Source of the DNA: Planctomycetaceae bacterium
Lineage (GTDB): Bacteria; Planctomycetota; Planctomycetia; Pirellulales; Thermoguttaceae
Direction of reading: 5' to 3'
Length of the DNA stretch: 27,834 nt
NCBI GenBank assembly: GCA_031257725.1
Contig: JAIROD010000815.1
Location: 1-27,834 of the forward strand
The notes under the pieces were generated by a model, which worked only from the letters and a program-made list of their open reading frames with translations, made no database searches and was not told the origin of the DNA. Position numbers and translations under genes: made by a program. Position 1 is the stretch's first letter. The number at the start of each line of letters is the position of its first letter. Of the stretch, positions 4,619-23,700 are shown piece by piece.

Positions 4619-5971
4619 ATGAGAGTATTTTTTGGATGTTTATTATCGTTAATTTTATTTTCCTATGGAGGTGAAAATTTTGTTCACGCGGAAAATGAAA
4701 TTGTTTATTTGGGACAGGAAGCCTGTACCCCCTGTGACGCAATTGGCGAGCAACCGCCCAACGACCCTTGCGATGCGGTCTCCTGTGACACGGACACGTT
4801 TAATTTGTTTTCGCACAATTATCCGTATCGCCGTAATCACCGCAAATCGCTCTTTGACAGCCTTGACTTTTTTGGTTGGATTCAGGGTGGGGTGTATGCC
4901 AATAGTCGCGGTAATACTGTTACTCGGTCAAAGGGAACGAATTACAACGGACGGACTGTTACACAATTAGACAGCGGTTCCGGTAACGGAGATTTGCATT
5001 TAGGTGTCAAATCAACGGATTTTCAGGTGAATCAACTTTGGTTTGGCGTGAAGCGTAACGCTGACGGCAAGCATGGTTTGGATTGGGGGGGTGCCGCTGA
5101 AGTCATTTTTGGTACGGAAGCATGGATTGCTCAGAGTTGGGGCGATGCCGAACTTGATTACGGTTGGCAGGACGGCGATTATTCAACCGCCTTCCCGCAA
5201 TTGTACTTCCAACTCGCTTACGGCAATTTGTCCGTAAAAGCCGGTAAGTTTGAAACAATAATTGGTTATGAAGCATTTCGTGCCGCTAATTTTTTCTTTT
5301 ACAGTCATTCTTATATTTTCCATCTGGAGCCGTATTCTCATTCGGGGGTATTTGGGGAATACAATCCCGGCGGGAAGTGGTCGTTTGGTGCTGCTTACAC
5401 AACCGGTGCTAATTCCAGTATCGAAAATGCGTTTGATGATCACGGTTTGCTGGGACTGATTAGTTATCAACTCACCGACGACCTCAGTATTTCCTACGCC
5501 GTAACATATAATCATAACGGTTACGGTGCCTACCGTGATCCCGGAGACACGAACAAAAACCGGTATGGTTTGAGCGGGACGAATGTTTATCTGCATACGG
5601 TTGCGGCAAGTTATAATATTTCCGATAAATGGAATTACGTCCTTCAATGGAATTACAATAACGCTAAACTCCGGGAAGACGGTAGTCATGCGTTATCGTA
5701 CGGTATTGCCAATACGCTGACGTATCAGTTTAATGATAAGTGGGGAATTGGTTTTCGTGCGGAATGGGCAAATCTGGACGGCATTTATGGTTTCGGAAAC
5801 GATATCAGTGAATACACACTCGGTGTGAATTGGAAACCCTATTCCAATATCAGTATTCGTCCTGAAATACGTTATGATTATAGCGCAGGTTCAAACGCCG
5901 CCAAACTATTCAACAATGGAAAAAACCGCGACCAATTTTCCGGAGGTATTGCCAGCGTGATTTCGTTTTAA
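4619..5971 (+). CDS. Outer membrane beta-barrel protein, putative porin (BBP2/OmpL-like family), copy 2
   Basis: Signal peptide, beta-barrel pattern and C-terminal Phe. Shares long identical runs with copy 1 (e.g. DISEYTLGVNWKPYSNISIRPEIRYDYSA). RBS GAGGGAG. Confidence 0.85.
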   Translation: MRVFFGCLLSLILFSYGGENFVHAENEIVYLGQEACTPCDAIGEQPPNDPCDAVSCDTDTFNLFSHNYPYRRNHRKSLFDSLDFFGWIQGGVYANSRGNTVTRSKGTNYNGRTVTQLDSGSGNGDLHLGVKSTDFQVNQLWFGVKRNADGKHGLDWGGAAEVIFGTEAWIAQSWGDAELDYGWQDGDYSTAFPQLYFQLAYGNLSVKAGKFETIIGYEAFRAANFFFYSHSYIFHLEPYSHSGVFGEYNPGGKWSFGAAYTTGANSSIENAFDDHGLLGLISYQLTDDLSISYAVTYNHNGYGAYRDPGDTNKNRYGLSGTNVYLHTVAASYNISDKWNYVLQWNYNNAKLREDGSHALSYGIANTLTYQFNDKWGIGFRAEWANLDGIYGFGNDISEYTLGVNWKPYSNISIRPEIRYDYSAGSNAAKLFNNGKNRDQFSGGIASVISF

Positions 5972-6264: not shown

Positions 6265-6684
6265 TTATTTTGGGAAATAGTGTGATTGGTTGCGGCAGAT
6301 TTCATTCAAAATATCATCGGTGTATCCGATAGTTTCAAATATTTTCATTCCTCCGGCGGTAAGATACTCTAATGCGCCGCAACCGATTTTTCCAGTAATA
6401 ATCGCATCGCAGTCACTCAATATATCCAATATTTTGTCAAAGGACTGTTCATGATGTTCAAATTGATTACAACAAGGCTCAACGGTTCTTGTTTCAACAA
6501 AATTATATCCGTTTTCGTTAATTGAAACGATATGAAATTCCTTTGTTCTGCCGAAATGTTGATGAATTGTTTTACCGTCAGAACTGGCAACAGCAATCAG
6601 ATTAGAAATTGTTGCGGATTTTCTATTATCGTCGCCATTATTATTTTTTTCATAAATAGTGATTGGTTTGAATTCCATGATCAT
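6265..6684 (-). CDS. NifB/NifX-family Fe-Mo cofactor-binding domain protein
   Basis: IAVASSDGKTIHQHFG, a C/H-rich loop (PCCNQFEHHE) and DCDAIITGKIGCGA are typical of the Nitro_FeMo-Co domain. ATGA overlap with the upstream gene. Confidence 0.85.
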   Translation of the reverse strand: MIMEFKPITIYEKNNNGDDNRKSATISNLIAVASSDGKTIHQHFGRTKEFHIVSINENGYNFVETRTVEPCCNQFEHHEQSFDKILDILSDCDAIITGKIGCGALEYLTAGGMKIFETIGYTDDILNEICRNQSHYFPK

Positions 6685-7349
6685 CGCTCATTTCTCCTTA
6701 ATTTTGAAATAGTATCATCTAAAAGTTTAACCGCCTGCACCGCATTATTCGCGTAACCGTCGGCTTTTATTTTTGTTGCGAAATCGTGTGAAATCGGTTT
6801 ACCGCCGACCATCACACGAAACCGATTACGTTTATTTTCTGCAACTAATAAATCGATCACCTCTTTGATATTTTTCATTGTTGTTGTCATCAAGGTTGAT
6901 ACGGCGATAATATCAGCGTTCCACTTAACCGCTTCGTCCACAAAAAGGTGTGCCGAAACATCTTTTCCCAAGTCGAGTACTTCATATCCCGCCGAATTCA
7001 AAAATAACGCAACTATATTTTTCCCAATATCATGAGTATCCCCGAAAATCGTACCAAGAACAACTCGTCCTTTGGACAATGGATTTTGTAACAACCCTGT
7101 CCTTAAAATTGCGGCGGCATTTTGTACAGTATCTGCGCAAACGAGAAGATCGGGGATGAAATATTCGCCTGTTTCATAAAGTTGACCGACTTTTGCCATT
7201 CCGCCGCCCAATCCTGTTTCAATTGCTTTCGCGCAATCCAAACCGTTGCGGACAATTATTGTTGCAATCTTTTCCGCCAGCGTTTCGTCCTGATCAACAA
7301 CCGCTTGAGATAATTGTTCAAAAAATTGTTGCTGTGTTAATTCCGTCAT
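6681..7349 (-). CDS. Corrinoid (B12-binding) methyl-carrier protein, MtaC/MttC-like
   Basis: Four-helix cap followed by the DxHxxG motif (GDTHDIGKNIV), STLMTTT and VMVGG. Confidence 0.9.
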   Translation of the reverse strand: MTELTQQQFFEQLSQAVVDQDETLAEKIATIIVRNGLDCAKAIETGLGGGMAKVGQLYETGEYFIPDLLVCADTVQNAAAILRTGLLQNPLSKGRVVLGTIFGDTHDIGKNIVALFLNSAGYEVLDLGKDVSAHLFVDEAVKWNADIIAVSTLMTTTMKNIKEVIDLLVAENKRNRFRVMVGGKPISHDFATKIKADGYANNAVQAVKLLDDTISKLRRNER

Positions 7350-7882
7350 AAAACGCCGTTTGAAATATGTAATAAAAAAATTTTATTTACGGTCGGAGTG
7401 TGGATACATTGATGTCCGATAAAAACAAGTTGTTTCATTTGTGCGTATTCCGATAACACCGACATGTACGGTTTGTCGGGAAACGGAACAAGTTCAACAT
7501 GTACAAAACCGTATTTTTCCAAAGAGAAGGAACTGTAAGGGCAAAGATGTATTACTCCGCCGGAAGTTGTTTTGAGTCCGCTCAAAAGTTGAAATAAATA
7601 CGGCAACGAAAATTCACGAATATGCGTTTCGGATAGTGTAACAGGATTGGCATACGGATCCGCAATGGAAATAATTTGCGGCAAGGCTGTGTTTATTTCG
7701 ATGATTAAATTTGTTGCGATATATTCCAGTTCTTTCTGAACTACAGACTTTTCTTGTTGTAACCGTTTATAAAATGCGAGTCCGTTTTCCGCCTGAGCCG
7801 CAGCCGAAAACGGCGCGGATATTTCCAAAACAAAATCATACTTCTCATGCGTTTCCGCAACACAATATTTCATCGGGTTCAT
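7346..7882 (-). CDS. Short URO-D/MtaA-fold-like protein (partial barrel)
   Basis: ISIADPYANP resembles the IADPTA motif of the MtaA paralogues. Contains IHLCP (HxC) and a distal GHQC. Coupled to both neighbours; only 178 aa. Confidence 0.55.
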   Translation of the reverse strand: MNPMKYCVAETHEKYDFVLEISAPFSAAAQAENGLAFYKRLQQEKSVVQKELEYIATNLIIEINTALPQIISIADPYANPVTLSETHIREFSLPYLFQLLSGLKTTSGGVIHLCPYSSFSLEKYGFVHVELVPFPDKPYMSVLSEYAQMKQLVFIGHQCIHTPTVNKIFLLHISNGVL

Positions 7883-7883
7883 A

Positions 7884-9464
7884 TTAAAACCCCAGTGACG
7901 CTACAAATATTTTTTCAAAATTTTCGTTATTTGCCAGTTCAATTTTTTGTATTTCAGACGCAACATTCAGCATTTTCGTTCTAAAATCGACATTTAACAA
8001 AAAAGCGGTTCCGCCGGATTGAGCGGTGTTACCGACAAACGTTACTTTTCCTTCAAATTCAGGCGGGAGCAAACCAATACTTAAAAGGCTTTTTTCGTTC
8101 AAATGATAACCAAAGGAACCGGCAATTTCGATACGGTTTACTTCTTCTTTCTTGAGATTCATTTTCATTAAAAGAGATTCAATTCCTGAACGAACCGCGC
8201 CTTTTGCCAGTTGAATTTGCCGAACGTCATTTTGTGTCAAATAAACATCGTCGGTAACAAAAAACACTTTTTTCCCGTCTTTTTCCCGTAATCCGTCAAT
8301 TGTTTTTTGTGACGTGAATCTGCCGCTTTTCCCGATAATTCCTTGCCTGACCAATTCGCCGGTTATATCCAAAAGTCCGCTTCCGCAAATTCCTGTTGCG
8401 CGTGTACCGCCGATTACCTGATAATCGATACTTCCGTCATTGTTGATACAAAAACGTTCAACGGCACCGTTTCCGGCGCGCATTCCGCAGGTGATATTCA
8501 TTCCTTCAAAAGCCGGACCCGCCGCCGTTGATGTTGCCGCCAGAGCACCGTTTTTTGCCAAAACCATTTCGCCGTTTGTACCAATATCAATAAATAATAT
8601 TGTTTCTTTTTGTTCATATAATTGTGACGCTAAAATACCGGAGGTGATATCGGCACCGACAAACGCGGAAATTATCGGCGGTAAATAAATCACGCCAAAA
8701 GGCGAAATATTGAGTTTCAATGCGGTAAAATATTCACCGCCGTGAATTTGTGACAGATAAGGATATTGTCCGAGCGGTTTGGGGTCAATTCCGCACGCTA
8801 AATGAAGCATTGCCGTATTGCCGCTGTACACAATTTCATAAATATTTTTCGTACTGATTTTTGCTTTTTCCGAAAGAGTACCGATCATTTCGTTTAATGC
8901 GTCAATCAAAACGTTTTGTAACACGTTCAAACCTTCGTGATTACTTGCGAAATGGATTCTTGAAAGAACATCTTGAGCGTAAGTACTTTGCGGATTCAAT
9001 CTGCTTTCTGAAACAATTTCTTTTCCAGAGGACAAGTTAATTATTGCAACGACTAAAGTTGTTGTTCCGATATCAACAGTAATTCCATAACACGATTTTG
9101 ACGTATCGCCTGATTCCGTACCTAAAGCGGAGTTCCCGCCGTAAACAACTGTTTTTTCACCGTCAAATTGTTTTGAAATGAACGGTTTTAATTGGCAGGA
9201 ACAACTTTGTCCGCCGGACAATATTTGCAACGTTTTATTTTCGTTTTCTTTATTTTCGGTAAAGACAGTGATATTTTCTGTAATATTTTTTTGACAAGCA
9301 AGAAAATAATCGGAACCGATTTTTATTTTACACTTACCGCAAGTTCCCATACCGTTACACGGCGTTTCCAGCACGATTCCCAATTGCCGTGCCGCTTCCA
9401 GGACGGTTGTTCCGTTTGTTACGGAGAGTGTTTTCTGTTCGTTGGCGAAAATAATTTCAGGCAC
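7884..9464 (-). CDS. Reductive activator of corrinoid proteins (RACo/RamA-like; 2Fe-2S plus ASKHA ATPase, DUF4445)
   Basis: N-terminal PCNGMGTCGKC...ACQ [2Fe-2S] motif, plus DIGTTT, DIGTNGE, GPAFEG, GICGSG, AGSFG and GNTA. GTG start with a GGAGG RBS. Confidence 0.92.
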   Translation of the reverse strand: MPEIIFANEQKTLSVTNGTTVLEAARQLGIVLETPCNGMGTCGKCKIKIGSDYFLACQKNITENITVFTENKENENKTLQILSGGQSCSCQLKPFISKQFDGEKTVVYGGNSALGTESGDTSKSCYGITVDIGTTTLVVAIINLSSGKEIVSESRLNPQSTYAQDVLSRIHFASNHEGLNVLQNVLIDALNEMIGTLSEKAKISTKNIYEIVYSGNTAMLHLACGIDPKPLGQYPYLSQIHGGEYFTALKLNISPFGVIYLPPIISAFVGADITSGILASQLYEQKETILFIDIGTNGEMVLAKNGALAATSTAAGPAFEGMNITCGMRAGNGAVERFCINNDGSIDYQVIGGTRATGICGSGLLDITGELVRQGIIGKSGRFTSQKTIDGLREKDGKKVFFVTDDVYLTQNDVRQIQLAKGAVRSGIESLLMKMNLKKEEVNRIEIAGSFGYHLNEKSLLSIGLLPPEFEGKVTFVGNTAQSGGTAFLLNVDFRTKMLNVASEIQKIELANNENFEKIFVASLGF

Positions 9465-9467
9465 GTT

Positions 9468-10490
9468 TCACCCCTCCTTTATTGCGGAAGTGAACGCGGT
9501 AATATTGTTCAACGGCGTGGACGTACTGAGTCCGCAGGCAGGAGCCAAAATATCAATATTTTTTGACAAAAGATGTTTCGCCTGTTTAAACACCGTGTCG
9601 GCGTTACCAAATTCCAATAAATACGTACTGATATTGCCCATCGCCGGCATATTGTCAAGTTCTTTTTTCAACATTGCCAAATCAACAATCGCGTCAACAC
9701 TCAAAACTTTACTGTGCAATTTTTGCAGTTGCGGTTTCACCATTCGGACATCGCCGCAAATATGGACAATAACAGGAACCCCCAATTCATGTACAGAATC
9801 TGTAATTTTGTTCAGATAATAAACCGCGTATTCGTCAAAAATTTTGGGACCAAGAATTTCACCGGTTGCGGTTGGATCAGCGATTGAAATTGCGGCGGCT
9901 CCGTTGTCTGCCATGAGTTTTGCGTAACTAATCAATTGTTCCGTTACATAATCGATCACTTTATGCGCCGCTTCCCGTTCACGGCGCAGTTGTTTCAAAA
10001 AAATCATCGGATCGACAATAGAAGCCGCAGTGCTGATTGGTCCGGTCAGACTTCCAACTGCCGGAATTTCAGGATATTTTTCCGAAAGTAAATAAATCGC
10101 CTGAATTACTGTTTCGGCACGGCTGCTGTTCGCGATTGTTCCGTCAGGTAAAAAAGTTACATCTTTAACCGACGGAAACACTTCTTTTTGTATTTTCGGT
10201 TCACATTCAAGTGAACCGAAATTGATTGAACTGCCAAGTGCTTCGGCTTCCACCGTCATACAAAATGGAATACCAAAATTTTCGAAACCGGTATTTTCAT
10301 AAACATCATAAGCCAAATCACTCATTTTATCGCTTGTATGATGTGCGTCCGGCAATAAATGTCCGGTTTTTGTCATCACATCCACAATCGCGGCATTCAT
10401 CATACCGCCCGGACAAATAACCGGCGGACGATCAACCGTTTCACCGGATAAAGTTTTTTGTAACCTTTCTTTCGGAGAAAAAACATCCAT
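9468..10490 (-). CDS. MtaA/CmuA-family methylcobamide methyltransferase (URO-D fold)
   Basis: SPKERL start, PFCMTVEAEALG, GPISTA, IADPTA, and Zn-ligand motifs HICG and APACG. Confidence 0.9.
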   Translation of the reverse strand: MDVFSPKERLQKTLSGETVDRPPVICPGGMMNAAIVDVMTKTGHLLPDAHHTSDKMSDLAYDVYENTGFENFGIPFCMTVEAEALGSSINFGSLECEPKIQKEVFPSVKDVTFLPDGTIANSSRAETVIQAIYLLSEKYPEIPAVGSLTGPISTAASIVDPMIFLKQLRREREAAHKVIDYVTEQLISYAKLMADNGAAAISIADPTATGEILGPKIFDEYAVYYLNKITDSVHELGVPVIVHICGDVRMVKPQLQKLHSKVLSVDAIVDLAMLKKELDNMPAMGNISTYLLEFGNADTVFKQAKHLLSKNIDILAPACGLSTSTPLNNITAFTSAIKEG

Positions 10491-10495
10491 AATCG

Positions 10496-11146
10496 TTACC
10501 TCCCAACCAATTCGTTTGCCATTTTAATTGCCTGATTCGCGTTGGACGAATAACCGTCGGCACCAATTTGGTCCGCAAATCGCCGCGACACCGGACCGCC
10601 GCCAATCGCCACCTTAAATTCGTTACGGATTCCTTTCTCGTTCAATATATTGATCACATCCGCCATGCCATCCATTGTTGTTGTCATCAGCGATGAAATC
10701 ATAATAATTTTTGCATTTTCCTGAACTGCACGCTCAACAAATACGGAAGGAGGAACATCTCGTCCTAAATCGATCACGTCAAATCCGGCGGAGGAGAGCA
10801 TAAGTTTAACGAGATTTTTTCCAATATCATGCGTATCACCCGCGATAACACCGATAACAATTTTATGCTTTTTTTCTTGACGTTCTGTTTTAATGTACGG
10901 TTTCAATATTTCAACACCGGCATTCAATGCGTCCGCGCACATGAGTAATTCCGGTACGAAATATTCTCCATCGTCAAAAAGCCGTCCCGCTTGTTCCATC
11001 CCTTTGGCAAGTCCCAGATCAATCGCTTCGAATGCGTCGTAACCGGATTCAACCGCTTCATTCGATAATTGTGCGGATAACTCCTCTTCCATATTAACAA
11101 CAGCATCGGACATCTCCGAATATAATTCATCTTTAGTTTTGCCCAT
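10496..11146 (-). CDS. Corrinoid (B12-binding) methyl-carrier protein, MtaC/MttC-like
   Basis: EYFVPELL, GDTHDIGKNLV (DxHxxG), SSLMTTTM and IGGGP. Confidence 0.92.
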   Translation of the reverse strand: MGKTKDELYSEMSDAVVNMEEELSAQLSNEAVESGYDAFEAIDLGLAKGMEQAGRLFDDGEYFVPELLMCADALNAGVEILKPYIKTERQEKKHKIVIGVIAGDTHDIGKNLVKLMLSSAGFDVIDLGRDVPPSVFVERAVQENAKIIMISSLMTTTMDGMADVINILNEKGIRNEFKVAIGGGPVSRRFADQIGADGYSSNANQAIKMANELVGR

Positions 11147-11491: not shown

Positions 11492-12856
11492 TTAACGTTG
11501 TGCTGCGATAACGGAAAGTAAATCTTCGATGAGTGACAAACTGCCGTCATAACCGGCGTATCCGCGATTCAACACAATACGGTTTCCCACCGGATAACTT
11601 ACCGTAAGATGTCCTGCACCGATATCTGTTGCAAATTCACGTTCCAGATGACTGCCGATCACAAAACCCGGTGAAAAATCATCTTGATACAAACGGTCGG
11701 ATTTTCTTGGTACGATTTTCCAAAAATGCGTTTTGATTTCCGTCGGATCGGATTCATAAGCAATCGCGGTCGGATATTGGGAAGTCAATGTTTCAATAAC
11801 ACTGCTGATTTTCGGTTTTTGTTCTTCATCGACATTATTGGTAACAACCATTAATTCCGGCAGCCAGCCGAAATCGTCTGCAAGAAATTTCGTAATAGCA
11901 GGCGCATAATTAACATCGCCCACAACAACCGCGTAACGCTGCCAGTCAAGATCATTGTAAGCGTCCGCGACTCGTTCCAAATAACGGAAATAATGTTTTG
12001 TTTCCGTCTCGATGAGTTGTTGTACAATATCTTGCGGAATTTCAAGAATTTCCGCAACATTTTTCAAAAAGGCTTCTGTTGACGTGGGTCCGATAGGAAA
12101 GGGATTGGTAATATAAGGAATTTGATGTATTTTCTTAAAGGCGTTTGCAGCGTCTTGAGCGTAAAATTCCGAAACGACAATCGTCAACGCCGCATCGCCT
12201 GCGTTGCGGATACTATTTAATGTATCATATTCGGTAAAGAACGAATTAACTTCCAATCCTAATTTTTCCAATAAGGTACGAATTTTTAACAGATTACCGC
12301 GCCAAAAAGCGTCTTGCCCCGGCACCACACCTAACAAGTTGACTTTATTTTTCTTTTTAACTTTTTGTTTTTCGATAAATTCCCGTATGAGAACAGTCAA
12401 TACAAGATCGTAACCTTTATAACCGTCTCCATGAAAACCGCCTGTTTCCGTACCGATAATTTCGGTTCCTTCTTCACGATATTGCCGGACAATAGATTGT
12501 ATATCGTCACCGATAATATCAGCGGTACAGCCTGTGAGAATAATGTACAATTTCCCTTCGACTAATTCGATTGTATTTTTTACTTGTTCTTCCAACCGTT
12601 CTAAACCGCCGAAAATGATGTCTTTTTCTTGAATATTGGAACTCGGCACCGCCAAGCCGCCGCAATATCCCGCGCCCAAATAACCGGTACTTCCATATTG
12701 GTTCCAATAAATACTTCCGCCGCATCCCATCGCGGTATGTAATATCGGTACGGTTTCCGGTAATGCCGTAACCGTAATCAACGCGCCGCCCAAAGAACAA
12801 AATGATCTTGGTCTTTCGATAAAACGTTTATTTGTATTAGTTATATACGTATTCAT
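11492..12856 (-). CDS. Nitrogenase-like component 1 beta subunit (NifK-like; group IV/MarK-like)
   Basis: Three P-cluster-type cysteines (FCSLGG C20, HTAMGC C45, TGCTADIIGDD C110), short N-terminus, and C-terminal VSYPVGNR...GYAGYDG. Confidence 0.9.
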   Translation of the reverse strand: MNTYITNTNKRFIERPRSFCSLGGALITVTALPETVPILHTAMGCGGSIYWNQYGSTGYLGAGYCGGLAVPSSNIQEKDIIFGGLERLEEQVKNTIELVEGKLYIILTGCTADIIGDDIQSIVRQYREEGTEIIGTETGGFHGDGYKGYDLVLTVLIREFIEKQKVKKKNKVNLLGVVPGQDAFWRGNLLKIRTLLEKLGLEVNSFFTEYDTLNSIRNAGDAALTIVVSEFYAQDAANAFKKIHQIPYITNPFPIGPTSTEAFLKNVAEILEIPQDIVQQLIETETKHYFRYLERVADAYNDLDWQRYAVVVGDVNYAPAITKFLADDFGWLPELMVVTNNVDEEQKPKISSVIETLTSQYPTAIAYESDPTEIKTHFWKIVPRKSDRLYQDDFSPGFVIGSHLEREFATDIGAGHLTVSYPVGNRIVLNRGYAGYDGSLSLIEDLLSVIAAQR

Positions 12857-14370
12857 TGATCATCGCCTCCTTGAATATATTTGAACGGATTTTCCGAATA
12901 CCAAAATTCCTTGTACGGCTGGCGGGCATGTTTCGATAAATGTTCGTTGAACGACGAATTTTTCAAATGCCGTTTCAAACGCCGCGCAATATCATAAGCA
13001 CCGGCGTAACCGCTGTAAATACTATTTGTTCCATAAATTGGTAAAACGGCAACGCCGCATTTTGCCGCCCAGATGTTGTCGGAATTATGACCGATATAAA
13101 TGTCCGGTTTTGTACGGTAAATAAGATTGACGGCTTCAAAAGGCTGTGCGGTGGCGACATTGATACGAATTTTAGGATTGATCTTTTCAAGTTTTTCAAT
13201 TTCGACTCCGCCGAATTGATCATAGTGATAAGGACGCACCGCTAAAATTTCCATGCCTAATTCTTGCAACAACACGGCAGTTGCAAGTGTACGAATTTCA
13301 CCGGCACTCAGCATTGCTGTTTTCCCTTTCAGATAAGGAAGCAACGGTTTCAACGACTGATTTAATTCATCGGTTTCCGATTTAATGATACGTTCCGCCG
13401 CATCGGTCAATCCAAGTTTTTTGGCAACTTGACGAAGCCAAAGTGAAGTATTTTCGATACCGATAGGCATTTGACCGCCTACAAAAGGAACTCCAAATTT
13501 TTGTTCCAGATAAGTCATAAAGTAATCGTCATGAGTTGGACAAACGCCGATTGATAACGCCGCAAACGGAGCAAGGCGAAAAGCGTCGGGATGAGCGTCG
13601 CAAGGTAACATATTCACCTCAAGTCCCAACTTATTCAAGAGCCGCGTCAATTCCTTCTGATCCGGTCCCGTCATCGACGATACATTCAGAAGATTAACCA
13701 ACCGGCTCCGCCGTAACTTTTCCGATGTTACCGAAATTTCATTATCATACACATTAAATTCCGTTTCATCTTTTCCGTCAGTCATGTTCCGCAAAAAAGA
13801 ATGAAAAATCGCGTCATAAGCGGTTGCCATAATTTTTGTTTTAAAACCTTCGCAATGAATCGGTAAAATTGTTGCGGAAACCTGATCTTTCAAATTATCG
13901 GCAACTCCGTCAATATCATCGCCGATAATTGCGGGCACACAAGTTGACAGAACAATAATTGCGTCCGGTCGGTAACGTTTATCGGCTTCGACAATACTAT
14001 GTTTCAATTTTTCTTCTCCGCCGGACACGACATCACTTTCACTCAAATTTGTCGAGAGCCAAAGTGCGCCTTTCGGATTTTTGATACCGCTGTTAAACTG
14101 ACCGACGCGCACACTTGCACCTTGTGAATGTACTGCGCCGCCGCAGCCGACCGCACCATGCACAATAACAACACAATCTTGTAACGACGTTAAAATTGCT
14201 GTTGCAGGAAGAAGTTGACAAATCGTTCCTTGACTAAACGCACGGCGTTTGTTTTTCAGACAACCGCCGCAAAACTGTTTATGAATTTCGCCCACCGTAC
14301 CGCCAAATTCGATACAACTTCCCAATCGTTCTTCGCGCCGCGGCGCAACTTTTTGTTTTAAATAATTCAT
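12853..14370 (-). CDS. Nitrogenase-like component 1 alpha subunit (NifD-like; group IV/MarD-like)
   Basis: P-cluster-type cysteines (TICQ, HGAVGCG, STCVPAIIGDD), HCEGF, and cofactor-type Cys in GVCPTHDDY. Start placed at 14370 (GGAGG RBS, ATGA overlap with the upstream stop); the ORF track gives 14385. Confidence 0.9.
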   Translation of the reverse strand: MNYLKQKVAPRREERLGSCIEFGGTVGEIHKQFCGGCLKNKRRAFSQGTICQLLPATAILTSLQDCVVIVHGAVGCGGAVHSQGASVRVGQFNSGIKNPKGALWLSTNLSESDVVSGGEEKLKHSIVEADKRYRPDAIIVLSTCVPAIIGDDIDGVADNLKDQVSATILPIHCEGFKTKIMATAYDAIFHSFLRNMTDGKDETEFNVYDNEISVTSEKLRRSRLVNLLNVSSMTGPDQKELTRLLNKLGLEVNMLPCDAHPDAFRLAPFAALSIGVCPTHDDYFMTYLEQKFGVPFVGGQMPIGIENTSLWLRQVAKKLGLTDAAERIIKSETDELNQSLKPLLPYLKGKTAMLSAGEIRTLATAVLLQELGMEILAVRPYHYDQFGGVEIEKLEKINPKIRINVATAQPFEAVNLIYRTKPDIYIGHNSDNIWAAKCGVAVLPIYGTNSIYSGYAGAYDIARRLKRHLKNSSFNEHLSKHARQPYKEFWYSENPFKYIQGGDDQ

Positions 14371-15422
14371 AATGAACTCCTCCATTTACGCGATGCTGTA
14401 ACAAACGCTCGTACATTTTCTTCGGATACCTTTGCGGAAAGATCGCAACCCGGTAATAACATAAATCCGCCGTCTCCGGCAGCATCATCCAAACATTTTT
14501 GTGTTTCAATATAAATTTCATCGGCGGTTTTTTCTTCAAGAACAAACACCGGATTCACGTTTCCCGCTAAACCGATTTTTCCGTATAATATCTGTTTTGC
14601 GTTTCGTAAATCAACCTTGCTGTCCACTGAAACCATTTGGATTCCTGTTTGCGGTAACAAATGTAAACGGTCGGAAATATTGCCGCAAATATGAATCAAA
14701 GAATGTTTCTGATACGACTTTAAACGTTGTATCACCGCCATAAGATAAGGAATAACAGCATATTCAAAATGACGTACAGAAACAACATCGCCCGACGCAC
14801 TAGGATCCGCAATAAAAATACCGTCAATTCCATCAACCTGCAACATAAATTCAAAATAAGCAACAGAAATATCTGTTGTAAAAGCGAGCAGTTTTTCCGC
14901 AAACAGTTTATTTTTGTACAACGATTTCGACAATGTTTCCAAACCTAATAATTGTCCCGCTAATGTGAACGGGGCACGTCCGCTGACAAATAAACTTCTC
15001 GGATTGTTGTTCTCTGGATTTTCGTTCAGTTTTACCGTTTCCTCCGCAACCGCTTTTAACCACTTTATTTTTTCAGATTGAAACACACTTTGTAAATCAA
15101 GCTGATCAATGTCTTCCGGCGAACTAATAAGTAATGAATCAATTTCCGGCGCACCTTTTTTTGTAAATTGAATTTTTCCTCCCAACGCTTCAACTAAAAA
15201 GGCGGTTGCGCCGGTTCCAACCGTAACAAAATCCGCGCCGACTCTTTCATTGACACGATAAAAAATTTCAGCAGCGCGAGACGGCGGAGAGGATAATAAT
15301 TCCTGTAACGAAACGCCTTCCACGAAAAAAGGCCAACTCCCGCCAAGACAAACTCCCACCGGAACCCGTTCCGGTTTTTTAAGAGCAAATACCTCTGTTA
15401 TAATTTTTCTTGATGTGGACAT
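14367..15422 (-). CDS. URO-D-fold MtaA/CmuA-like methyltransferase
   Basis: PERVPV, RAPFTLAGQL, IADPSASGDVVS, HICG, GNVNP and LPGCD. Probable start MSTSRK at 15422, because the ORF-track extension to 15488 is made of 9-bp repeats. Confidence 0.85.
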   Translation of the reverse strand: MSTSRKIITEVFALKKPERVPVGVCLGGSWPFFVEGVSLQELLSSPPSRAAEIFYRVNERVGADFVTVGTGATAFLVEALGGKIQFTKKGAPEIDSLLISSPEDIDQLDLQSVFQSEKIKWLKAVAEETVKLNENPENNNPRSLFVSGRAPFTLAGQLLGLETLSKSLYKNKLFAEKLLAFTTDISVAYFEFMLQVDGIDGIFIADPSASGDVVSVRHFEYAVIPYLMAVIQRLKSYQKHSLIHICGNISDRLHLLPQTGIQMVSVDSKVDLRNAKQILYGKIGLAGNVNPVFVLEEKTADEIYIETQKCLDDAAGDGGFMLLPGCDLSAKVSEENVRAFVTASRKWRSSL

Positions 15423-15452
15423 TTTTTTATTTCGTAAAGTTAAGTTAGGGTT

Positions 15453-15530
15453 AATGGACATAATGGACATGATAGACACAATGAACATGATGGGACAATG
15501 ATACGAAAATAGTATTTTTAAAGGGTTCCC
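15453..15530. repeat. 9-bp-period GGACA repeat array with a GGGAAC...TAAAAAT-type terminus
   Basis: AATGGACAT AATGGACAT GATAGACAC AATGAACAT GATGGGAC, followed by ATTTTTAAAGGGTTCCC. Related arrays occur at 17026, 19711 and 27281. Confidence 0.6.
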
Positions 15531-15603: not shown

Positions 15604-16926
15604 TCAGGAATTTTCCAAATACCGTTCCCGTTCCCAATCTGTAACATTTATATCGTGAACGGAAATATCGAAATGAATTAATTCACTGAAAATTTCAACA
15701 AATTCCTTGCCGAAATATTCAACCGCTTTTTCACTTTTGTCAAACAAAATTGCCGCGTCTTTTAATGTCCGCGGAATAGCGGGAAGCGTTTCATTAAAAT
15801 AACCGTTGCCTTCGATAATTTCCGGAGCCGGTAATTTTTGTTCCAAACCGTATAATCCCGAAGCAATAGAAGCCGCAATCAGGAAATAAGCGTTTGCATC
15901 CGCAGCACCGGTGCGCTGTTCAATTCTCGTACTATTTCCATAACCAACCAATCTCGTTGAAACCGTTCTGTTATCGTAACCAATTCCAACTCGCGTCGGA
16001 GCAAACGACATGTCCGTGAGACGTTTGTAAGAATTAACCGTAGGACAACACAACGCCATCAATTCACGTGTTCCGTCAAGAAGTCCCGCCGAATATTGTT
16101 CCAGTATCGTTTTGTCCTCCGCAAAAGCATTTTTTGAAACTCCATTGTTTTCCTTCGTCCATAAACTTTGATGTAAATGGTAACCGCTGCCCGATTCCGT
16201 ATTCCAAACCCGCGCCATAAATGTTGCGTACATCCCATTTTTTCGTGCAATTTCTTTAATTGCGTTACGAGCAATCACCGTGTTGTCCGCATTCGTCAGC
16301 GCATCGGAAAATTCCAGAATCACTTCCATCTGACCAGGACCATATTCCGTATGAACCGCCTCAATCGGAATTTGAAACGCCTCCAAATTATTTTGAATCT
16401 GTTCAATAATATCACTGTACTGACTCGCTTTTCCAATAGAATAAGTTTCCTTGCCGCCGAAAAGCGGTTTTTTGTTACTGTCCAGAAGATAAAACTCAAC
16501 TTCCGATCCCACTTTCGCCGTATAACCTGTTTTTTCAAGCCGTTCCAGTACATTTTTCAGAATTTGCCGAGGCGCAACCTGAATACGTTGTCCTTTATCC
16601 GTATCAAGATCGGCAAGAACAAAAGCAGTTCCTTTACGCCAAGGAATTTCCCGTAACGTGGAATAATCCGGTTTCAAAATCATATCCGACGCACCATACT
16701 CAAAACCCGCAAAAGAAGAGGTCGAAAAATATTCCGACTGAACATCCCACGTCAACGGCGCACGGCATAACCCGGTGCCGGATGTTAAATGTTCCAGTAA
16801 AAACCGAGACGGTAAACGTTTGCCAATAATGGAACCGTTAATGTCCGCAAATCCAACTTCCACCGAATGGATTTTATGTTCCAAAATATATTCTTTCGCT
16901 TGTTCCAATTCTTGTAATGAATACAT
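15604..16926 (-). CDS. Glutamine synthetase-like protein (probable gamma-glutamyl-amine ligase, PuuA/GmaS-like rather than GlnA)
   Basis: GSEVEFY, HTEYGPGQME, GSGYHLHQSLW, NSYKRL, DNRT and RIEQR motifs. It lacks the GlnA FDGSS ammonium-site motif and the adenylylation loop. Confidence 0.85.
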   Translation of the reverse strand: MYSLQELEQAKEYILEHKIHSVEVGFADINGSIIGKRLPSRFLLEHLTSGTGLCRAPLTWDVQSEYFSTSSFAGFEYGASDMILKPDYSTLREIPWRKGTAFVLADLDTDKGQRIQVAPRQILKNVLERLEKTGYTAKVGSEVEFYLLDSNKKPLFGGKETYSIGKASQYSDIIEQIQNNLEAFQIPIEAVHTEYGPGQMEVILEFSDALTNADNTVIARNAIKEIARKNGMYATFMARVWNTESGSGYHLHQSLWTKENNGVSKNAFAEDKTILEQYSAGLLDGTRELMALCCPTVNSYKRLTDMSFAPTRVGIGYDNRTVSTRLVGYGNSTRIEQRTGAADANAYFLIAASIASGLYGLEQKLPAPEIIEGNGYFNETLPAIPRTLKDAAILFDKSEKAVEYFGKEFVEIFSELIHFDISVHDINVTDWERERYLENS

Positions 16927-17025
16927 TGTATTTCTTAAAATTTGTTTTTATTGGTAATCGTTTTGTTAAAAAACACGGTTGGAAATAATGTTGCGTTTTT
17001 TGGGGGATTCAATTGACTTAAAAGT

Positions 17026-17056
17026 GACATTAGGGACAGTGGAGACACTAGGGACT
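17026..17056. repeat. 9-bp-period GGACA repeat array
   Basis: GACATTAGG GACAGTGGA GACACTAGG GACT, between cysK and the GS-like gene. Confidence 0.5.
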
Positions 17057-17116
17057 ATTTTTTTTTTTGAACGATTATTGTTTTTATCATTATCATTATC
17101 ATTATTTTTATTATTA

Positions 17117-18064
17117 CTATTTTTTAAATGGGTTATCAAAAAGCGGTGTGGATAAATAACGTTCTCCGGTGTCGGGAAGAAGAACCACGATTGTTTTGTC
17201 CTTATTTTCGTTGCGTTTTGCAATTTGTAACGCGGCGAACGCTGCTGCGCCGGAGGAGATGCCGACGAGTAATCCTTCTTGAGTTGCCAACTCGCGCGAA
17301 GTTTCAAACGCTTCGTCATTTTTGACACGAAAAATTTCGTCAACTACCGACAAGTTCATAATTTCCGGAACAAATCCTGCTCCGATTCCCTGAATTTTAT
17401 GCGGTGCCGCCGCTCCGCCGGATAAAACCGGTGAATCGTCCGGCTCCACCGCAACAATTTTTACGGACGTTTTTTTCTCTTTGAGCACTTCGCCAACACC
17501 GGTAATTGTTCCGCCGGTTCCAACTCCACCGACAAAAATATCAACTTCGCCTTCGGTATCGTTCCAAATTTCCAACGCGGTTGTTTCACGATGTATTTTC
17601 GGATTCGCCGGATTACGAAATTGTTGCGGACAATAACTGTTCGGAATTTGTGCGGCGATTTCTTCCGCTTTACGGATTGCACCTTTCATTCCTTCACTGC
17701 CGGAAGTCAACACCAGTTCCGCTCCGAGTGCTTTCAACAAATTACGCCGTTCAATACTCATTGTTTCCGGCATCGTGATAACAATTTTGTAACCTTTCGC
17801 CGCAGCCACAAATGCAAGTCCAACACCGGTGTTACCGCTGGTTGGTTCGATGATGACGGAATCTTTTTTCAAAAGTCCTTGTGCTTCGGCGGCTTCAATC
17901 ATTGCCAACGCAATACGGTCTTTCACACTGCCGGCAGGATTGAAAAATTCCAATTTCGCTACCAATTTCGACTTCACGCCTTGATCCGTTCCGAATTTTT
18001 TCAGTTCCAGCAAAGGCGTATTACCAATAAGTTCCGTTAAACTCTGTTTATAAATGACTGTCAT
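17117..18064 (-). CDS. cysK: Cysteine synthase A (O-acetylserine sulfhydrylase)
   Basis: PLP lysine in NPAGSVKDR, plus [23 protein letters not shown] and PDTGERYLS. Confidence 0.95.
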
Positions 18065-18282
18065 TTTTGAAATAAAAATAGAAAATGGCGTAACAATTCA
18101 GCCGTTTGATTTTTTGTTTTTTATTTCAACGCGAAATACAAAAAAATTGATACAAAATAAAACGAAATTCCTTTTCACGTATTTTTTACCTTTTTTAACG
18201 TATTTCGCGGTAAAAAAATAAGTTACCGTAAACGGTTTCAATTACAAAATTTTAATTTGTAACAAACAATTATTTCCGTTGA

Positions 18283-19143
18283 TCACCACGACGGTAATAA
18301 CACTTCTTTTCCGTCAAAGGTATCTTTGAGGGCTTGTTTAACGGCATCGGTTTTGTACGCTTTTTCCAAAATCCGTACTTTTTCCGATCCTAAATTTTCT
18401 TTACGTACAGCAATGATATCCGGTGCTTGTAACTCCTTGCGTTCACCAGCCAAAGCATCTTTGCCAAATTCCAAACCGATTTCCGACGCAACCGTCGCGT
18501 AAAGAAAACCGGCGTCCGCTTCCTCCAACGCTTTAGCCAACATCGTGTAATCAACCTCGATAAACTTCAATTTTTTCGGATTATCGACGATGTCTTTTTT
18601 TGTAATGCTAATTGGATTGACTCCTTCTTTTAACTTAATCAAACCGGCATCCGCCAGAATCACAAACGCACGAAAATTGTTTCCGGGATCATTGGCAATT
18701 GTGATCGTTGCCCCTTCCGGCAGGTCTTGCAAGTTTTTATGTTTCTTTGAAAACAAACCCGCTCGATCCGTAAACACTTCAAACGCAACAGCAAGATTAC
18801 CTTTATGTGTTGCGTTAAATTCGTTCATGTACGGTGCATGCTGGTGATAATTTGCCAAATATTCACCACGCTCAACCGCTTCATTAAGCTGCGTGTTGTC
18901 CGCAAGGAACGTGTATTGCAATTTGTAACCAAGCTTCTCAACCTCCTGAGACAAAACTTTCGTCGTGTCTTCATAGGCTTTCAAGTTACACGATGCAAAT
19001 TTGATAACCTTATCGCTCTGCTCGGTTTGACTCTGCTTTCCGCCGCATCCTGTCAATATCGGTAACGTTAAAAATATTACCGAAGAAAGAATCGTTACAA
19101 CAAACGTTGTTGTAAAAAGTGTTGTGAAATGTTGTCTTTTCAT
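18283..19143 (-). CDS. metQ: MetQ/NlpA-family ABC substrate-binding lipoprotein
   Basis: Lipobox LTGC, YHQHAPYMNEFN, TIANDPGNNFRA, DIVDNPKKLKF. Family assignment is firm; the ligand is not. Confidence 0.85.
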   Translation of the reverse strand: MKRQHFTTLFTTTFVVTILSSVIFLTLPILTGCGGKQSQTEQSDKVIKFASCNLKAYEDTTKVLSQEVEKLGYKLQYTFLADNTQLNEAVERGEYLANYHQHAPYMNEFNATHKGNLAVAFEVFTDRAGLFSKKHKNLQDLPEGATITIANDPGNNFRAFVILADAGLIKLKEGVNPISITKKDIVDNPKKLKFIEVDYTMLAKALEEADAGFLYATVASEIGLEFGKDALAGERKELQAPDIIAVRKENLGSEKVRILEKAYKTDAVKQALKDTFDGKEVLLPSW

Positions 19144-19387
19144 TTTCTTTACCTCATTGGGTTAAAAATTGTTAACGGAACAGGAAACAATTCCCCGATC
19201 CTTTTCGTATGCTTCTCTTTCAGGGGCGAAGGAGTTTTCGTTAAATTTAGGTGAATATACTCGTTATACTTGAGTTTTCTGTTTCTATAACGGCAACATC
19301 CCGTTGCCGTGAATTTCTTTCGGCAGCGAGGACGTGACCGTTACTGATGAGGACACTACCGTTACGATTTGTCAAAATATTATTAAA

Positions 19388-19403
19388 CGCAAAAAACGTG
19401 CCA
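19388..19403 (-). promoter_or_regulatory. sigma54 (-24/-12) promoter for the metQ-cysK-...-nifX-like operon
   Basis: Minus strand reads TGGCAC-GTTTT-TTGCG, a near-perfect match to TGGCAC-N5-TTGCW. Confidence 0.8.
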
Positions 19404-19504
19404 GTTTTGTGATTAAATTGTTAAAGTTTTAAATTGAGCAGTAAAAAACGGAGTAATTCGTTGATAACTTGCTAAATTTAAAAGACTTAAAGCAAAACAT
19501 ACTA

Positions 19505-19520
19505 TGTAACTATGTTTACA
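19505..19520. promoter_or_regulatory. TGT-N10-ACA site (NifA-type upstream activator sequence candidate)
   Basis: TGTAACTATGTTTACA lies about 100 bp upstream of the sigma54 box, inside the perfectly conserved core. Identical copy at 27104-27119. Confidence 0.5.
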
Positions 19521-19649
19521 GTAATTAGTTTTATCAATTGTCAATATTCTGTCAATAGCCGGTTTGCTAAAAATTTTCGCCAATAATATGCCAATTTTGG
19601 GGAATTAAAAAAGACATTGTCGAAACAATGCCCTGATTCAAATACTATT

Positions 19650-19773
19650 GGGAACCTCTAAAAATTCAATTTTGATCTTGAATATTTGCCGCAACTGTCC
19701 CTAAAATTATGGGCTATGGGACATGAGGGACGATAAGGACAAAAAGGACAAATGAGTATTTTTAGAAATTCTC
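19650..19773. repeat. Small element bounded by GGGAACCTCTAAAAAT and ATTTTTAGAAATTCTC, containing 9-bp GGACA repeats
   Basis: Inverted termini around GGGCTATGG GACATGAGG GACGATAAG GACAAAAAG GACAAATGA. Counterpart at 27247-27381; lone termini at 19890 and 25906. Confidence 0.55.
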
Positions 19774-19778
19774 TAATT

Positions 19779-19846
19779 CCGTCATATTTCACGGCTCAAC
19801 CGTAAAACAACCGTGAAATATGACGGCTACCCGTGAAATATGATAG
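19779..19846. promoter_or_regulatory. Array of CCGTGAAATATGACGG palindromic sites
   Basis: Sites at 19779-19794 (reverse orientation), 19811-19826 and 19831-19846. Confidence 0.7.
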
Positions 19847-20117
19847 TTTAGCAACAAAATAATTTCCGGTTCCTGATTTTTTTACATTTGGGAATCTCTA
19901 AAAAATTCAAATCTGTTTCCCACAAAAATAAATGATTTATCATTTTTTTGTTATATTATCCTCAGATTACGCAGATTTTTGCCCCTACTTGTAATTCCTT
20001 TCCCTTTTACTAGAATCACACCAATTGTAATTTTTTATCCCTTTTTCACCCCTTCGGAGAATAAACCGTTTGATCATTAAAAATTAAACGATAAAAATTA
20101 GACGAAAAGTCATTAGT

Positions 20118-20345
20118 CCGACTCCAAAATCCTTGCAAGATTGTTTTTTGGACTGCATCTTTCCCGTTGTTCAACCACTTTTTTAAAAAGTGTTAATAGC
20201 GGGTTACTGTGCCTTGTTTGACTGTTACCAAAACGAATGAACTTACGTCCGCTGTAAGCGGGCGTTGGCTCATATTGTTTTGGTAACGGTTCTTGCAAGG
20301 ATACCGGGAGTCGGGCAATGGGAGACCAATGCCCTTTCTTTTTGC
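20118..20345. other. Multi-stem structured segment upstream of the DNA methyltransferase
   Basis: Outer inverted repeat 20118-20140/20291-20314, a long inner hairpin at 20224-20287, then a GAGA-loop hairpin (about 20313-20334) followed by a T-rich tract. Confidence 0.45.
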
Positions 20346-20423
20346 GCAACTTTCCGGTTGCGGCTCTGATGATGGTGTGTTGCTCCGATTCTCGTCCGGT
20401 TCTCCGCAACGCAACGCAACACG

Positions 20424-21398
20424 ATGGCAAAAGCGTCCAATTCCAATCTGCATACCGCCAAGAACAAAAAGAATGATGAGTTCTACACCCAACTGACTGA
20501 CATTGAAAATGAATTGAAACATTATAAACAACATTTTACCGGCAAGACCGTTTTATGTAACTGTGACGATCCGCGTGAAAGTAATTTCGTCAAATATTTT
20601 TTCGATCATTTTTATACTCTTCGTCTGAAACGGCTGATTGCAACTTGCTACAAAAATTCGTCTGTCGATTTGTTTAGTACGCATACCGCAAAGCAATCGG
20701 TTTGGTTAGATTACACCGGCGAAGGGCGAACCGACGATGTCAATCCTGACCGCCGGAAAATGAAACCGAAAACATTCAAAGGCGACGGCGATTTTCGCAG
20801 TCTTGAATGTATCGAATTATTAAAACAAGCCGACATCGTTTGCACCAATCCACCGTTCTCGCTGTTCAGAGAATATGTTGCGCAACTCGTGGATTATGAT
20901 AAAAGATTTTTGATCATAGGACATCAAAACGCAATTACGTACAAGGAAATTTTTAAATTGATTAAAGAGAATAAAATTTGGTTAGGATATGGATTTACAG
21001 GCGGAGCAGCACATTTCATAAATTTACATTACGAGGATTATGCAACTGCAAGTAATCACAAGGAAGGGATGATAAGGGTTTCAGGTGTTCATTGGTTTAC
21101 AAATCTTGAAACATCGAAGCGGCACGAAAAATTAGAATTGTACAAAAAATACAATCCGGCAGAATATCCAAAGTATGACAATTACGATGCAATAGAAGTA
21201 TCAAAAACAACAAACATACCAATGGATTACGACGGCGTTATGGGTGTGCCGATCACGTTTCTCGATAAATATAATCCTGAACAATTTGAGATTATCGGAT
21301 TAGATCGATATGTTGTAGGAAATAGAACGCCGAACAAACGAATGCAACTTGACGGAAGAGAACTTTACGCTCGTATTTTGATACGTTATCAGCGTTAA
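20424..21398 (+). CDS. Adenine-specific DNA methyltransferase, EcoRI family
   Basis: AKNKKNDEFYT, VLCNCDDP, GDFRS, catalytic TNPPFS, and GVMGVPITFLDKY. Confidence 0.9.
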   Translation: MAKASNSNLHTAKNKKNDEFYTQLTDIENELKHYKQHFTGKTVLCNCDDPRESNFVKYFFDHFYTLRLKRLIATCYKNSSVDLFSTHTAKQSVWLDYTGEGRTDDVNPDRRKMKPKTFKGDGDFRSLECIELLKQADIVCTNPPFSLFREYVAQLVDYDKRFLIIGHQNAITYKEIFKLIKENKIWLGYGFTGGAAHFINLHYEDYATASNHKEGMIRVSGVHWFTNLETSKRHEKLELYKKYNPAEYPKYDNYDAIEVSKTTNIPMDYDGVMGVPITFLDKYNPEQFEIIGLDRYVVGNRTPNKRMQLDGRELYARILIRYQR

Positions 21399-21617
21399 TT
21401 GATGTGAAGTTCGTCGGCACTGGGCTTGCCAAGAAAATAAATATAAGCGATAATGGTTGAGTGTATTTTTCACACGTTAAAATTGGTTTTTTGGTTTTTT
21501 GTTTTGTCCAAAAAATTTGTAATATATCAGTGGAGTTTTTATTTTTAATGTGAAAAGCAGAACAGGCAAACCTCATTTTTTTCTTAACTAAACGATTCAC
21601 CAAAAAAACCTCAGTAG

Positions 21618-21791
21618 CAGACGAATGCCTACGAGAAACAAAACGGTGTTTGCCCGCATTGCAAGCAGCCGTTTGACATTACAAAAATGGAAGGCGATCA
21701 TATCACACCTTGGAGTCAAGGCGGCAAGACAACAGCGGAAAATTGCCAAATGCTTTGCAAAGACTGCAATCGGAGAAAAGCAGGATGGTAA
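21618..21791 (+). pseudogene. HNH endonuclease C-terminal remnant
   Basis: A frame absent from the ORF track reads QTNAYEKQNGVCPHCKQPFDITKMEGDHITPWSQGGKTTAENCQMLCKDCNRRKAGW*, with CxxC...DH...N...CxxCN. It is preceded by an in-frame TAG (21615-21617) and has no start codon. Confidence 0.8.
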
Positions 21792-21812
21792 CATTAACAG
21801 TCTATTTTAATT

Positions 21813-23697: not shown

Positions 23698-23700
23698 TCT

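Follow-up and report, generated by a model that had tools for sequence, protein, structure and literature searches.

The window analysed here is a stretch of 27,834 nucleotides (contig JAIROD010000815.1, positions 1 to 27,834) from a Planctomycetaceae metagenome-assembled genome (MAG; assembly GCA_031257725.1) that is 75% complete. Its minus strand encodes NflD, an alpha-type catalytic subunit of a Group IV nitrogenase-like reductase, and the beta-type partner NflK. We put at roughly two in three (0.68) the probability that NflD belongs to a reductase that is driven by ATP, contains a P-cluster and an L-cluster-like cofactor, acts on an organosulfur substrate other than those of methylthio-alkane reductase (MAR) and works with corrinoid S-methyltransferases to yield sulfide or a thiol. 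The protein falls in a separate, well-supported Group IV clade whose signature is CPTHDDY, Tyr190, Arg365 and a Gly-His pair. It is not a new kind of protein; the gene is a typical member, and a good exemplar, of a widespread and functionally uncharacterised clade.

Fold, ligands and pocket of NflD

The nflD open reading frame (ORF) spans 12853-14385 on the minus strand and encodes 510 amino acids. The ATG at 14370, Met6 of this frame, is the likelier start because GGAGG lies 7 nt upstream, because the ATG overlaps the stop codon of the upstream gene UroD_a as ATGA, and because the alignments of most homologues begin at residue 6. Residue numbers refer to the 510-residue frame, and 5 is to be subtracted for the likely protein. 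The start of nflK overlaps the stop of nflD, also as ATGA in the junction sequence, and nflD is translationally coupled both to the methyltransferase-family gene UroD_a and to nflK. The sole Pfam domain in NflD is PF00148, nitrogenase component 1 (5e-77), and the top sequence match in the PDB is MarD of Rhodospirillum rubrum (9fmg_A/9d9u_A, E 1e-59). An AlphaFold2 model (predicted local distance difference test score, pLDDT, 91.6) has MarD 9fmg_A as its closest fold, with template modelling (TM) scores of 0.83/0.90 and a root-mean-square deviation (rmsd) of 2.9 A; for NifD structures the values are about 0.73/0.78 and about 8 A.

Individual residues were checked against three references, namely the canonical NifD of the same genome (contig C786), its canonical MarD (contig C510) and R. 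rubrum MarD from the PDB. Conservation was scored over 114 full-length homologues with at least 48% identity. Cys56, Cys81, Cys149, Tyr190, Cys282, His285, Asp286, Asp287, Arg365, His387 and His433 are present in all 114. Invariance is uncommon in the protein as a whole, with 53 of 510 columns, about 1 in 10, unchanged in a 63-sequence alignment, so the active-site residues are not a chance assortment. A preliminary description of this DNA had located equivalents of NifD Cys62, Cys88, Cys154, Cys275 and Arg359 by manual alignment, and these proved to be Cys56, Cys81, Cys149, Cys282 and Arg365. With Cys20, Cys45 and Cys110 of NflK, which align with Cys32, Cys56 and Cys121 of MarK, the three cysteines of the D subunit complete a set of six P-cluster cysteines. 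The same description had pointed to extra cysteines near the N-terminus. Two of them recur among the homologues, Cys42 in 105/114, a residue common to the window protein and MarD, and Cys24 in 87/114. CGGC, which had been listed with them, is not a conserved pair, as its first cysteine, Cys39, occurs in 22/114.

In R. rubrum MarD the ligands of the [Fe8S9C] cluster are Cys270 and His429, as established by cryo-EM and mutagenesis (PMC12552129, PMC13474568), and mutation of either residue abolishes activity (PMC13474568). His429 lies on an extended Loop I rather than on the loop that carries nitrogenase His442, and the preceding residue, Arg428, has been proposed as a hallmark of MAR (PMC12552129). 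Cys282 occupies the position of the cysteine ligand. The histidine that had been noticed further upstream, in PDIYIGHN, is His433, and it aligns with MarD His429 (IGHN against IRHN) in HMMER and in three MAFFT alignments. Because His433 is homologous to a MarD ligand, a complex cofactor is a well-founded inference. The earlier suggestion that the protein binds both a P-type cluster and a complex cofactor gains support from the six cysteines, Cys282 and His433, and on sequence grounds such binding is probable.

Residues associated with N2 reduction and homocitrate binding are absent. By ungapped count from the cysteine of CEGF, Met186 stands at NifD Gln191 and Tyr190 at His195, as the first reading of the sequence had it; among the homologues position 186 is Met in 83/114 and Trp in 31/114. 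Gly89 occupies the position of Arg96, where Arg is absent throughout the clade. The MHSWDY motif with His442 is replaced by LPIYGTNS, which places Tyr451 in the His442 column. In the alignments with NifD and MarD, Gln191, His195 and His442 are not conserved, and the residue set is not identical to that of MarD. The NifD encoded on contig C786 of the same genome is canonical at all of these columns (Gln191, His195, Arg96 and His442). The predicted substrate is not N2, in agreement with what had been proposed, and the MAR set of dimethyl sulfide (DMS) and methylthioethanol is probably excluded as well.

An alternative N2-fixing enzyme of the Nfa type is the least likely role that we considered. 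The protein is a Group IV member, and IV-A enzymes of Endomicrobium and Heliophilum have been implicated in N2 fixation (PMC13474568). It nevertheless lies outside the Nfa-like clade, lacks Gln191, His195, Arg96 and His442, and stands in a sulfur rather than a nitrogen context, in a genome that already has canonical NifDK and, on contig C434, what is probably another NifD-like alpha subunit, one that retains Gln191, His195 and His442.

The pocket also differs from that of characterised MarD, as had been anticipated. Ile185 corresponds to MarD His194, Met186 to Trp195, Tyr190 to Phe199, Ala63/Ile64 to Cys73/Gln74 and Gly432 to Arg428, so that all of these MarD residues are replaced. Gly432, like His433, is found in 114/114. 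His285, Asp286 and Asp287, within CPTHDDY, are clade-specific invariants that directly follow the Cys ligand. Two arginines are mutually exclusive across the clades: where the His ligand is preceded by Arg, as in Mar/Nfa-type proteins, position 365 is Phe, Tyr or His, and where position 365 is Arg, as in the window clade, the His ligand is preceded by Gly. We infer that a different residue contacts a belt sulfide in each clade, Arg365 here and Arg428 in MarD. The notion of a rebuilt active site, put forward in the preliminary description, does not hold; what it captured is the signature that a large and old Group IV clade conserves.

Position within Group IV

Trees were built with FastTree and IQ-TREE after a search of 1.8 billion representatives. 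The window clade is monophyletic with 99-100% support and separate from a clade (100%) that holds Mar and Nfa proteins together, among them the MarD of the same genome, the protein P0136 and a 495-residue NflD of Heliobacterium mobile that is 59% identical to P0136. P0136 is classed as Nfa-like by a cysteine-position fingerprint taken from a review, not from a named sequence; its seven cysteines match the published positions of E. proavitum NfaD at a constant offset. The window clade is neither IV-C (Mar) nor Nfa-type IV-A. The protein has the general features of a Group IV D subunit, with PF00148, a position outside Groups I-III, a paired K and MarD-type Cys/His ligands. The deep branching of Group IV is unstable, and the two programs give the window clade different sisters.

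Scanning for the CPTHDDY motif found at least 581 relatives in species-representative genomes. The nearest, at 86-90% identity, come from termite-gut Planctomycetaceae MAGs; other carriers include Synergistaceae, Clostridia, Desulfobacterota, Spirochaetes, Moorella thermoacetica, Geomonas, Heliobacterium, Pelosinus and Sporomusa. The phyla of the clade are Bacillota, Desulfobacterota, Spirochaetota, Synergistota and Planctomycetota. The label NflDK4 for the H. mobile orthologue comes only from counting the accessions of PMC9147875 against the ORF order of locus L054.

Two further clades were noted. One comprises about 50 D-like proteins of about 470 residues (P0141, P0143, P0137, P0156, P0232 and about 45 more) that have lost cysteines: of the P-cluster set the first and the third are gone (Asp/Ser and TPVV in their places), as are the CEGF cysteine and the cofactor cysteine. 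IQ-TREE places it as sister to the window clade, FastTree as sister to Mar/Nfa. The other (P0138, P0142, P0148) is an archaeal-looking Group IV clade with a Cys-containing insertion in Loop I (TxCPF..G) before the His position; the P0142 cluster includes a protein from a Methanobacterium sp. MAG.

A plain MAR isozyme, which would convert DMS, ethyl methyl sulfide or methylthioethanol to methanethiol and a hydrocarbon and leave the methanethiol to the corrinoid system, is unlikely. MarD is the top PDB match by sequence and by fold, both cofactor ligands are identical, and the context is one of sulfur assimilation. Paralogues of Mar in R. palustris can specialise on different substrates, and passages of Kountz and Balskus (PMC10418091) propose that MarHDK-like enzymes supply methyl sulfide to methyltransferases. 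The proteins nonetheless belong to separate clades, the window protein being 29% identical to the canonical MarD already encoded in its genome, and the MarD hallmarks Arg428, His194-Trp195 and Phe199 are all replaced. Among the Group IV clades tested, moreover, MAR activity was found only in IV-C (PMC13753814).

There is also a slim chance that NflD is a NifEN-like scaffold or maturase; not itself a reductase, it would then build or store the cofactor that the cell's other D/K enzymes use. The best NCBIfam model is indeed NifE (TIGR01283), several related loci have a second D/K pair, and NifB and NifX genes occur nearby. The NifE score of 196 bits is far under the curated cut-off of 505, however, and in the trees the protein lies inside Group IV, not with NifE. 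NifN is not known to keep all three P-cluster cysteines, whereas NflK does. No second D gene occurs within 10 kb in 59/79 loci, and the conserved polar pocket (Tyr190, His285, Asp286, Asp287 and Arg365) suggests catalysis.

Gene neighbourhood and proposed reaction

All genes of the operon lie on the minus strand, in the order MetQ, CysK-type enzyme, glutamine-synthetase-like ligase, UroD_a, D, K, corrinoid protein, UroD_b, RACo, URO-D fragment, second corrinoid protein and NifX-like protein (Table 1). UroD_a has a Zn-type site, His266-x-Cys268...Cys348, and the His-x-Cys...Cys ligands are invariant in 38/38 orthologues of UroD_a and 34/34 of UroD_b. Such a His-Cys-Cys set has been read as the mark of S/Se-methyltransferases in passages of a preprint (Kountz and Balskus, bioRxiv 2023, PMC10418091). 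Neighbourhoods were counted within 10 kb in 79 species loci of window-clade relatives. Genes of the URO-D family were found in 50 of these, CysK in 45, RACo in 35, a corrinoid protein in 34, NifH in 34 and NifB in 31. A UroD_a-type gene directly adjoins DK in 28/79, and the layout seen in the window recurs across phyla. The operons of the closest relatives (L014, L015, L018) include H, X and B, which follow RACo.

We regard reductive C-S cleavage as the likeliest reaction because the D gene is coupled to a Zn-type MtaA-like methyltransferase and stands amid genes for corrinoid proteins, RACo, CysK and MetNIQ. As we envisage it, NflD and NflK would form an alpha2-beta2 protein with a P-cluster at the D/K interface, held by Cys56, Cys81 and Cys149 of D and Cys20, Cys45 and Cys110 of K. 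A homocitrate-free, L-cluster-like [Fe8S9C] cofactor would sit inside D, its ends held by Cys282 and the Loop-I residue His433 as in MarD. Electrons would come from an ATP-hydrolysing NifH-like Fe protein, and a NifB-type enzyme would synthesise the cofactor, which the NifX-like protein would deliver. Reduction of the substrate would take place at the cluster belt in a clade-specific pocket lined by Ala63/Ile64, Ile185, Met186, Tyr190, His285-Asp286-Asp287, Arg365 and His387, in which Arg365 probably does the job of MarD Arg428. In the predicted reaction the C-S bond of an organosulfur compound, itself methylated or demethylated by the corrinoid system, would be cleaved reductively, and the product, sulfide or a thiol, would feed the synthesis of cysteine and methionine.

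Several points weigh against this assignment. Organosulfur is the most likely substrate class as judged from the gene neighbourhood only, and about one third of the related loci have no corrinoid genes within 10 kb. The cluster content is extrapolated from a homologue of 29-35% identity and is therefore a prediction. No cognate NflH or NflB gene was found within the window. The 75%-complete MAG yielded one NifH-like gene, whose product shares 46% identity with NflH from the operon of the nearest relative and is probably the NifH of the nitrogenase. Expression of Group IV clades outside IV-C in R. rubrum produced no MAR activity (PMC13753814); a different substrate would explain this, but so, equally well, would failed maturation or a role other than that of a reductase.

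Elsewhere in the MAG one NifB was found, together with at least 10 matches to PF00148 on contigs C786, C510, C434, C836, C219 and C614. Contig C786 carries the canonical NifD/NifK (NifD at L005:1414-3057:-) and a third, partial PF00148 gene, and C510 the canonical MarD with HWSTGFD and IRHN (L008:530-2071:-). The nitrogenase-family set is unusually rich for a planctomycete.

Selenium instead of sulfur was weighed as the target. Cleavage of C-Se bonds would then serve the recycling of methyl selenides, a role that has been put forward for most type 1 mlp gene clusters; according to passages of PMC10418091 most of these clusters are tied to selenium traits, and a clostridial Mlp2 demethylates methylcobalamin with selenide. 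The genes selD and selA were not found in this 75%-complete genome, a result that favours sulfur over selenium; CysK and MetNIQ are the neighbours, and the link with nitrogenase-like genes given in passages of that preprint concerns the non-selenium clade. We consider the selenium version very improbable.

Still less probable is a tetrapyrrole or corrinoid reductase, similar to CfbD or BchN, that would modify the cobamide of the neighbouring corrinoid proteins. Genes for such proteins do surround nflD, and models for dark-operative protochlorophyllide reductase and CfbD give weak matches. Tetrapyrrole-reducing relatives, however, use a single interface [4Fe-4S] cluster and are not known to have the full set of P-cluster and complex-cofactor ligands that is kept here. 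The linkage to NifB and NifX, and the absence of cobamide biosynthesis genes from the window, argue in the same direction.

A more specific form of the organosulfur assignment is speculative and probably not correct as it stands. In it the NflDK of the CPTHDDY clade would be the reductive end of a bacterial corrinoid-dependent demethylation pathway. MtaA-like enzymes would move the methyl group of a thioether (methionine, S-methylcysteine or related imports) onto a corrinoid protein, and NflDK would then either reduce a methyl-thioether carrier to methane and a thiol or cleave the demethylated thiol to sulfide for CysK. If true, a nitrogenase-type cluster would do a job analogous to that of methyl-coenzyme M reductase or of transsulfuration in anaerobic bacteria, including termite-gut Planctomycetes, and would be a new source of hydrocarbon or sulfide.

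For enzymes with a P-cluster and [Fe8S9C] outside nitrogenase, one reaction type has been assigned, the C-S cleavage by MAR, and what the remaining clades of Group IV catalyse is recognised as an open question (PMC13474568). The present clade is large; it combines the MarD ligand pair with its own sharply conserved pocket and a physical coupling to a Zn/corrinoid S-methyltransferase system. It makes testable both the substrate class and the residues that tune [Fe8S9C] (Arg365 versus Arg428, Tyr190 and His285-Asp-Asp), and it bears on anaerobic sulfur acquisition in gut and sediment bacteria.

Table 1. Features of nflD, nflK and the surrounding operon, with positions in the window.
Feature	Position	Strand	Basis or remark
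nflD, alpha-type catalytic subunit, Group IV nitrogenase-like reductase	12853..14370	-	ORF to 14385; likely start ATG 14370
Cys56, P-cluster ligand (NifD Cys62 / MarD Cys66)	14218..14220	-	114/114, alignment
Cys81, P-cluster ligand (NifD Cys88 / MarD Cys91)	14143..14145	-	invariant
Cys149, P-cluster ligand (NifD Cys154 / MarD Cys158)	13939..13941	-	invariant
Helix above cofactor, CEGFKTKIMATAYD, residues 178-191	13813..13854	-	alignments
CPTHDDY, residues 282-288	13522..13542	-	Cys282 cofactor ligand (NifD Cys275 / MarD Cys270)
Arg365 (AGEIR), equivalent to NifD Arg359	13291..13293	-	in window clade, absent from Mar/Nfa clade
His387, equivalent to MarD His375, near belt sulfide S2B in MarD	13225..13227	-	alignment, PMC12552129
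Gly432-His433, Loop I, in PDIYIGHN	13087..13092	-	HMMER and MAFFT alignments
LPIYGTNS, remnant of nitrogenase Loop II	13021..13044	-	no His442 equivalent; Tyr451 at that column
nflK, beta-type partner	11492..12856	-	PF00148; top PDB match MarK, 1e-75
UroD_a, MtaA/URO-D-family methyltransferase homologue	14367..15488	-	stop overlaps nflD start
Upstream operon genes	15604..19143	-	order recurs in L014-L019
Glutamine-synthetase-like ligase	15604..16926	-	
CysK-type pyridoxal-phosphate enzyme	17117..18064	-	
MetQ lipoprotein	18283..19143	-	
Downstream operon genes	6265..11146	-	order as in closest relatives L014-L018
Corrinoid protein	10496..11146	-	
UroD_b, MtaA-like	9468..10490	-	
RACo activase	7884..9464	-	
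URO-D fragment	7346..7882	-	178 residues, matches only the middle of URO-D/MtaA
Second corrinoid protein	6681..7349	-	
NifX / NifB-C-terminal-like cofactor carrier	6265..6684	-	

Other genes of the window deserve brief mention. The URO-D fragment and the second corrinoid protein look like the remnant of a partial duplication of a methyltransferase-corrinoid module, and the nearest relatives have NflH-NifX-NifB in their place. The ligase of the glutamine synthetase fold scores below all curated cut-offs for GlnA, GlnIII and gamma-glutamylputrescine enzymes; in the near subclade (16/79 loci) a gene of this kind immediately precedes UroD_a or D, and a possible role is the gamma-glutamylation of a pathway substrate or product that bears an amine. 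Between metQ and metI, the region 19200-21900 contains an EcoRI-type adenine methyltransferase gene (20424-21398, plus strand) and small ORFs; metN, metI and metQ are contiguous in the nearest relatives, and the region looks like an insertion into the transporter locus. Between metN and metI, at 22663-25874 on the minus strand, a third full-length MtaA-like gene (His237-x-Cys239...Cys319) follows genes for two Fe-S proteins, one of which has pentapeptide repeats and 4Fe-4S motifs. Near the end of the operon, genes for BBP2/OmpL-like beta-barrel porins (714-2075, minus strand, and 4619-5971, plus strand) flank a carbon-nitrogen hydrolase gene.

Comparison with known systems

The operon resembles the published type 1 mlp gene clusters and agrees with their definition. 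Passages of PMC10418091 describe these clusters, place nitrogenase-like genes in or near their non-selenium subset, for which methionine salvage or the use of methyl-sulfur compounds is proposed, and label the linked nitrogenase-like genes group IV-A; to that extent the general association is already published. The likeness to the clusters as described there extends to several MtaA-like URO-D proteins with His-Cys-Cys Zn sites, corrinoid proteins, a Ram/RACE activase, no H4folate methyltransferase, CysK and methionine-transport genes nearby, and nitrogenase-like genes within or beside the cluster. The window differs in that the linked nitrogenase-like protein of Acetivibrio thermocellus in that account is Nfa-like, 79% identical to P0136, and not of the window clade, and those passages contain no description of the tightly coupled UroD_a-D-K unit found in the CPTHDDY clade.

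With NifD the window protein shares the PF00148 fold, the P-cluster cysteines, Cys275, Arg359 and a Gly, not Arg, at the Loop-I position. It lacks Gln191, His195, Arg96, Arg277/Ser278 and His442, and is 24% identical to the NifD of its own genome. Assignment as NifD was rejected by curated cut-offs, with 146 bits against 653.6 for TIGR01282 and 164 against 486 for TIGR01862.

NfaD-type IV-A proteins resemble it as Group IV D subunits with P-cluster cysteines and a Cys/His pair of cofactor ligands, and both clades often lie near sulfur genes and mlp clusters. The Nfa-like proteins, however, carry the Arg-His, Trp and Phe of MarD and the motif CPTLGSY, which the window protein does not. It was rejected as an Nfa-type D because P0136, the presumed Nfa reference, and the 495-residue H. 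mobile NflD fall in the Mar+Nfa clade.

The closest likeness by structure is to MarD, and it covers the P-cluster cysteines, both cofactor ligands (Cys270 = Cys282, His429 = His433), His375 = His387 and Cys42. Both proteins lack the His442 loop and the homocitrate-binding residues, and both stand in a sulfur-assimilation context. Identity is 29-35% (29% to the MarD on C510). As a MarD the window protein was rejected, since it falls in a separate clade and lacks the Arg428 hallmark, the HWSTGFD helix, which reads IMATAYD here, and Cys73/Gln74; the MarD on C510 is canonical in the helix and at Cys73/Gln74. Of the pocket residues singled out in the MarD papers only His375 is kept. The window protein gains His285-Asp286-Asp287, has about 20 extra residues inserted behind the cofactor helix, and retains Arg365, whereas MAR lacks the equivalents of both Arg96 and Arg359 (PMC13474568). 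Unlike MarD, finally, it is encoded by a gene coupled to corrinoid methyltransferase genes.

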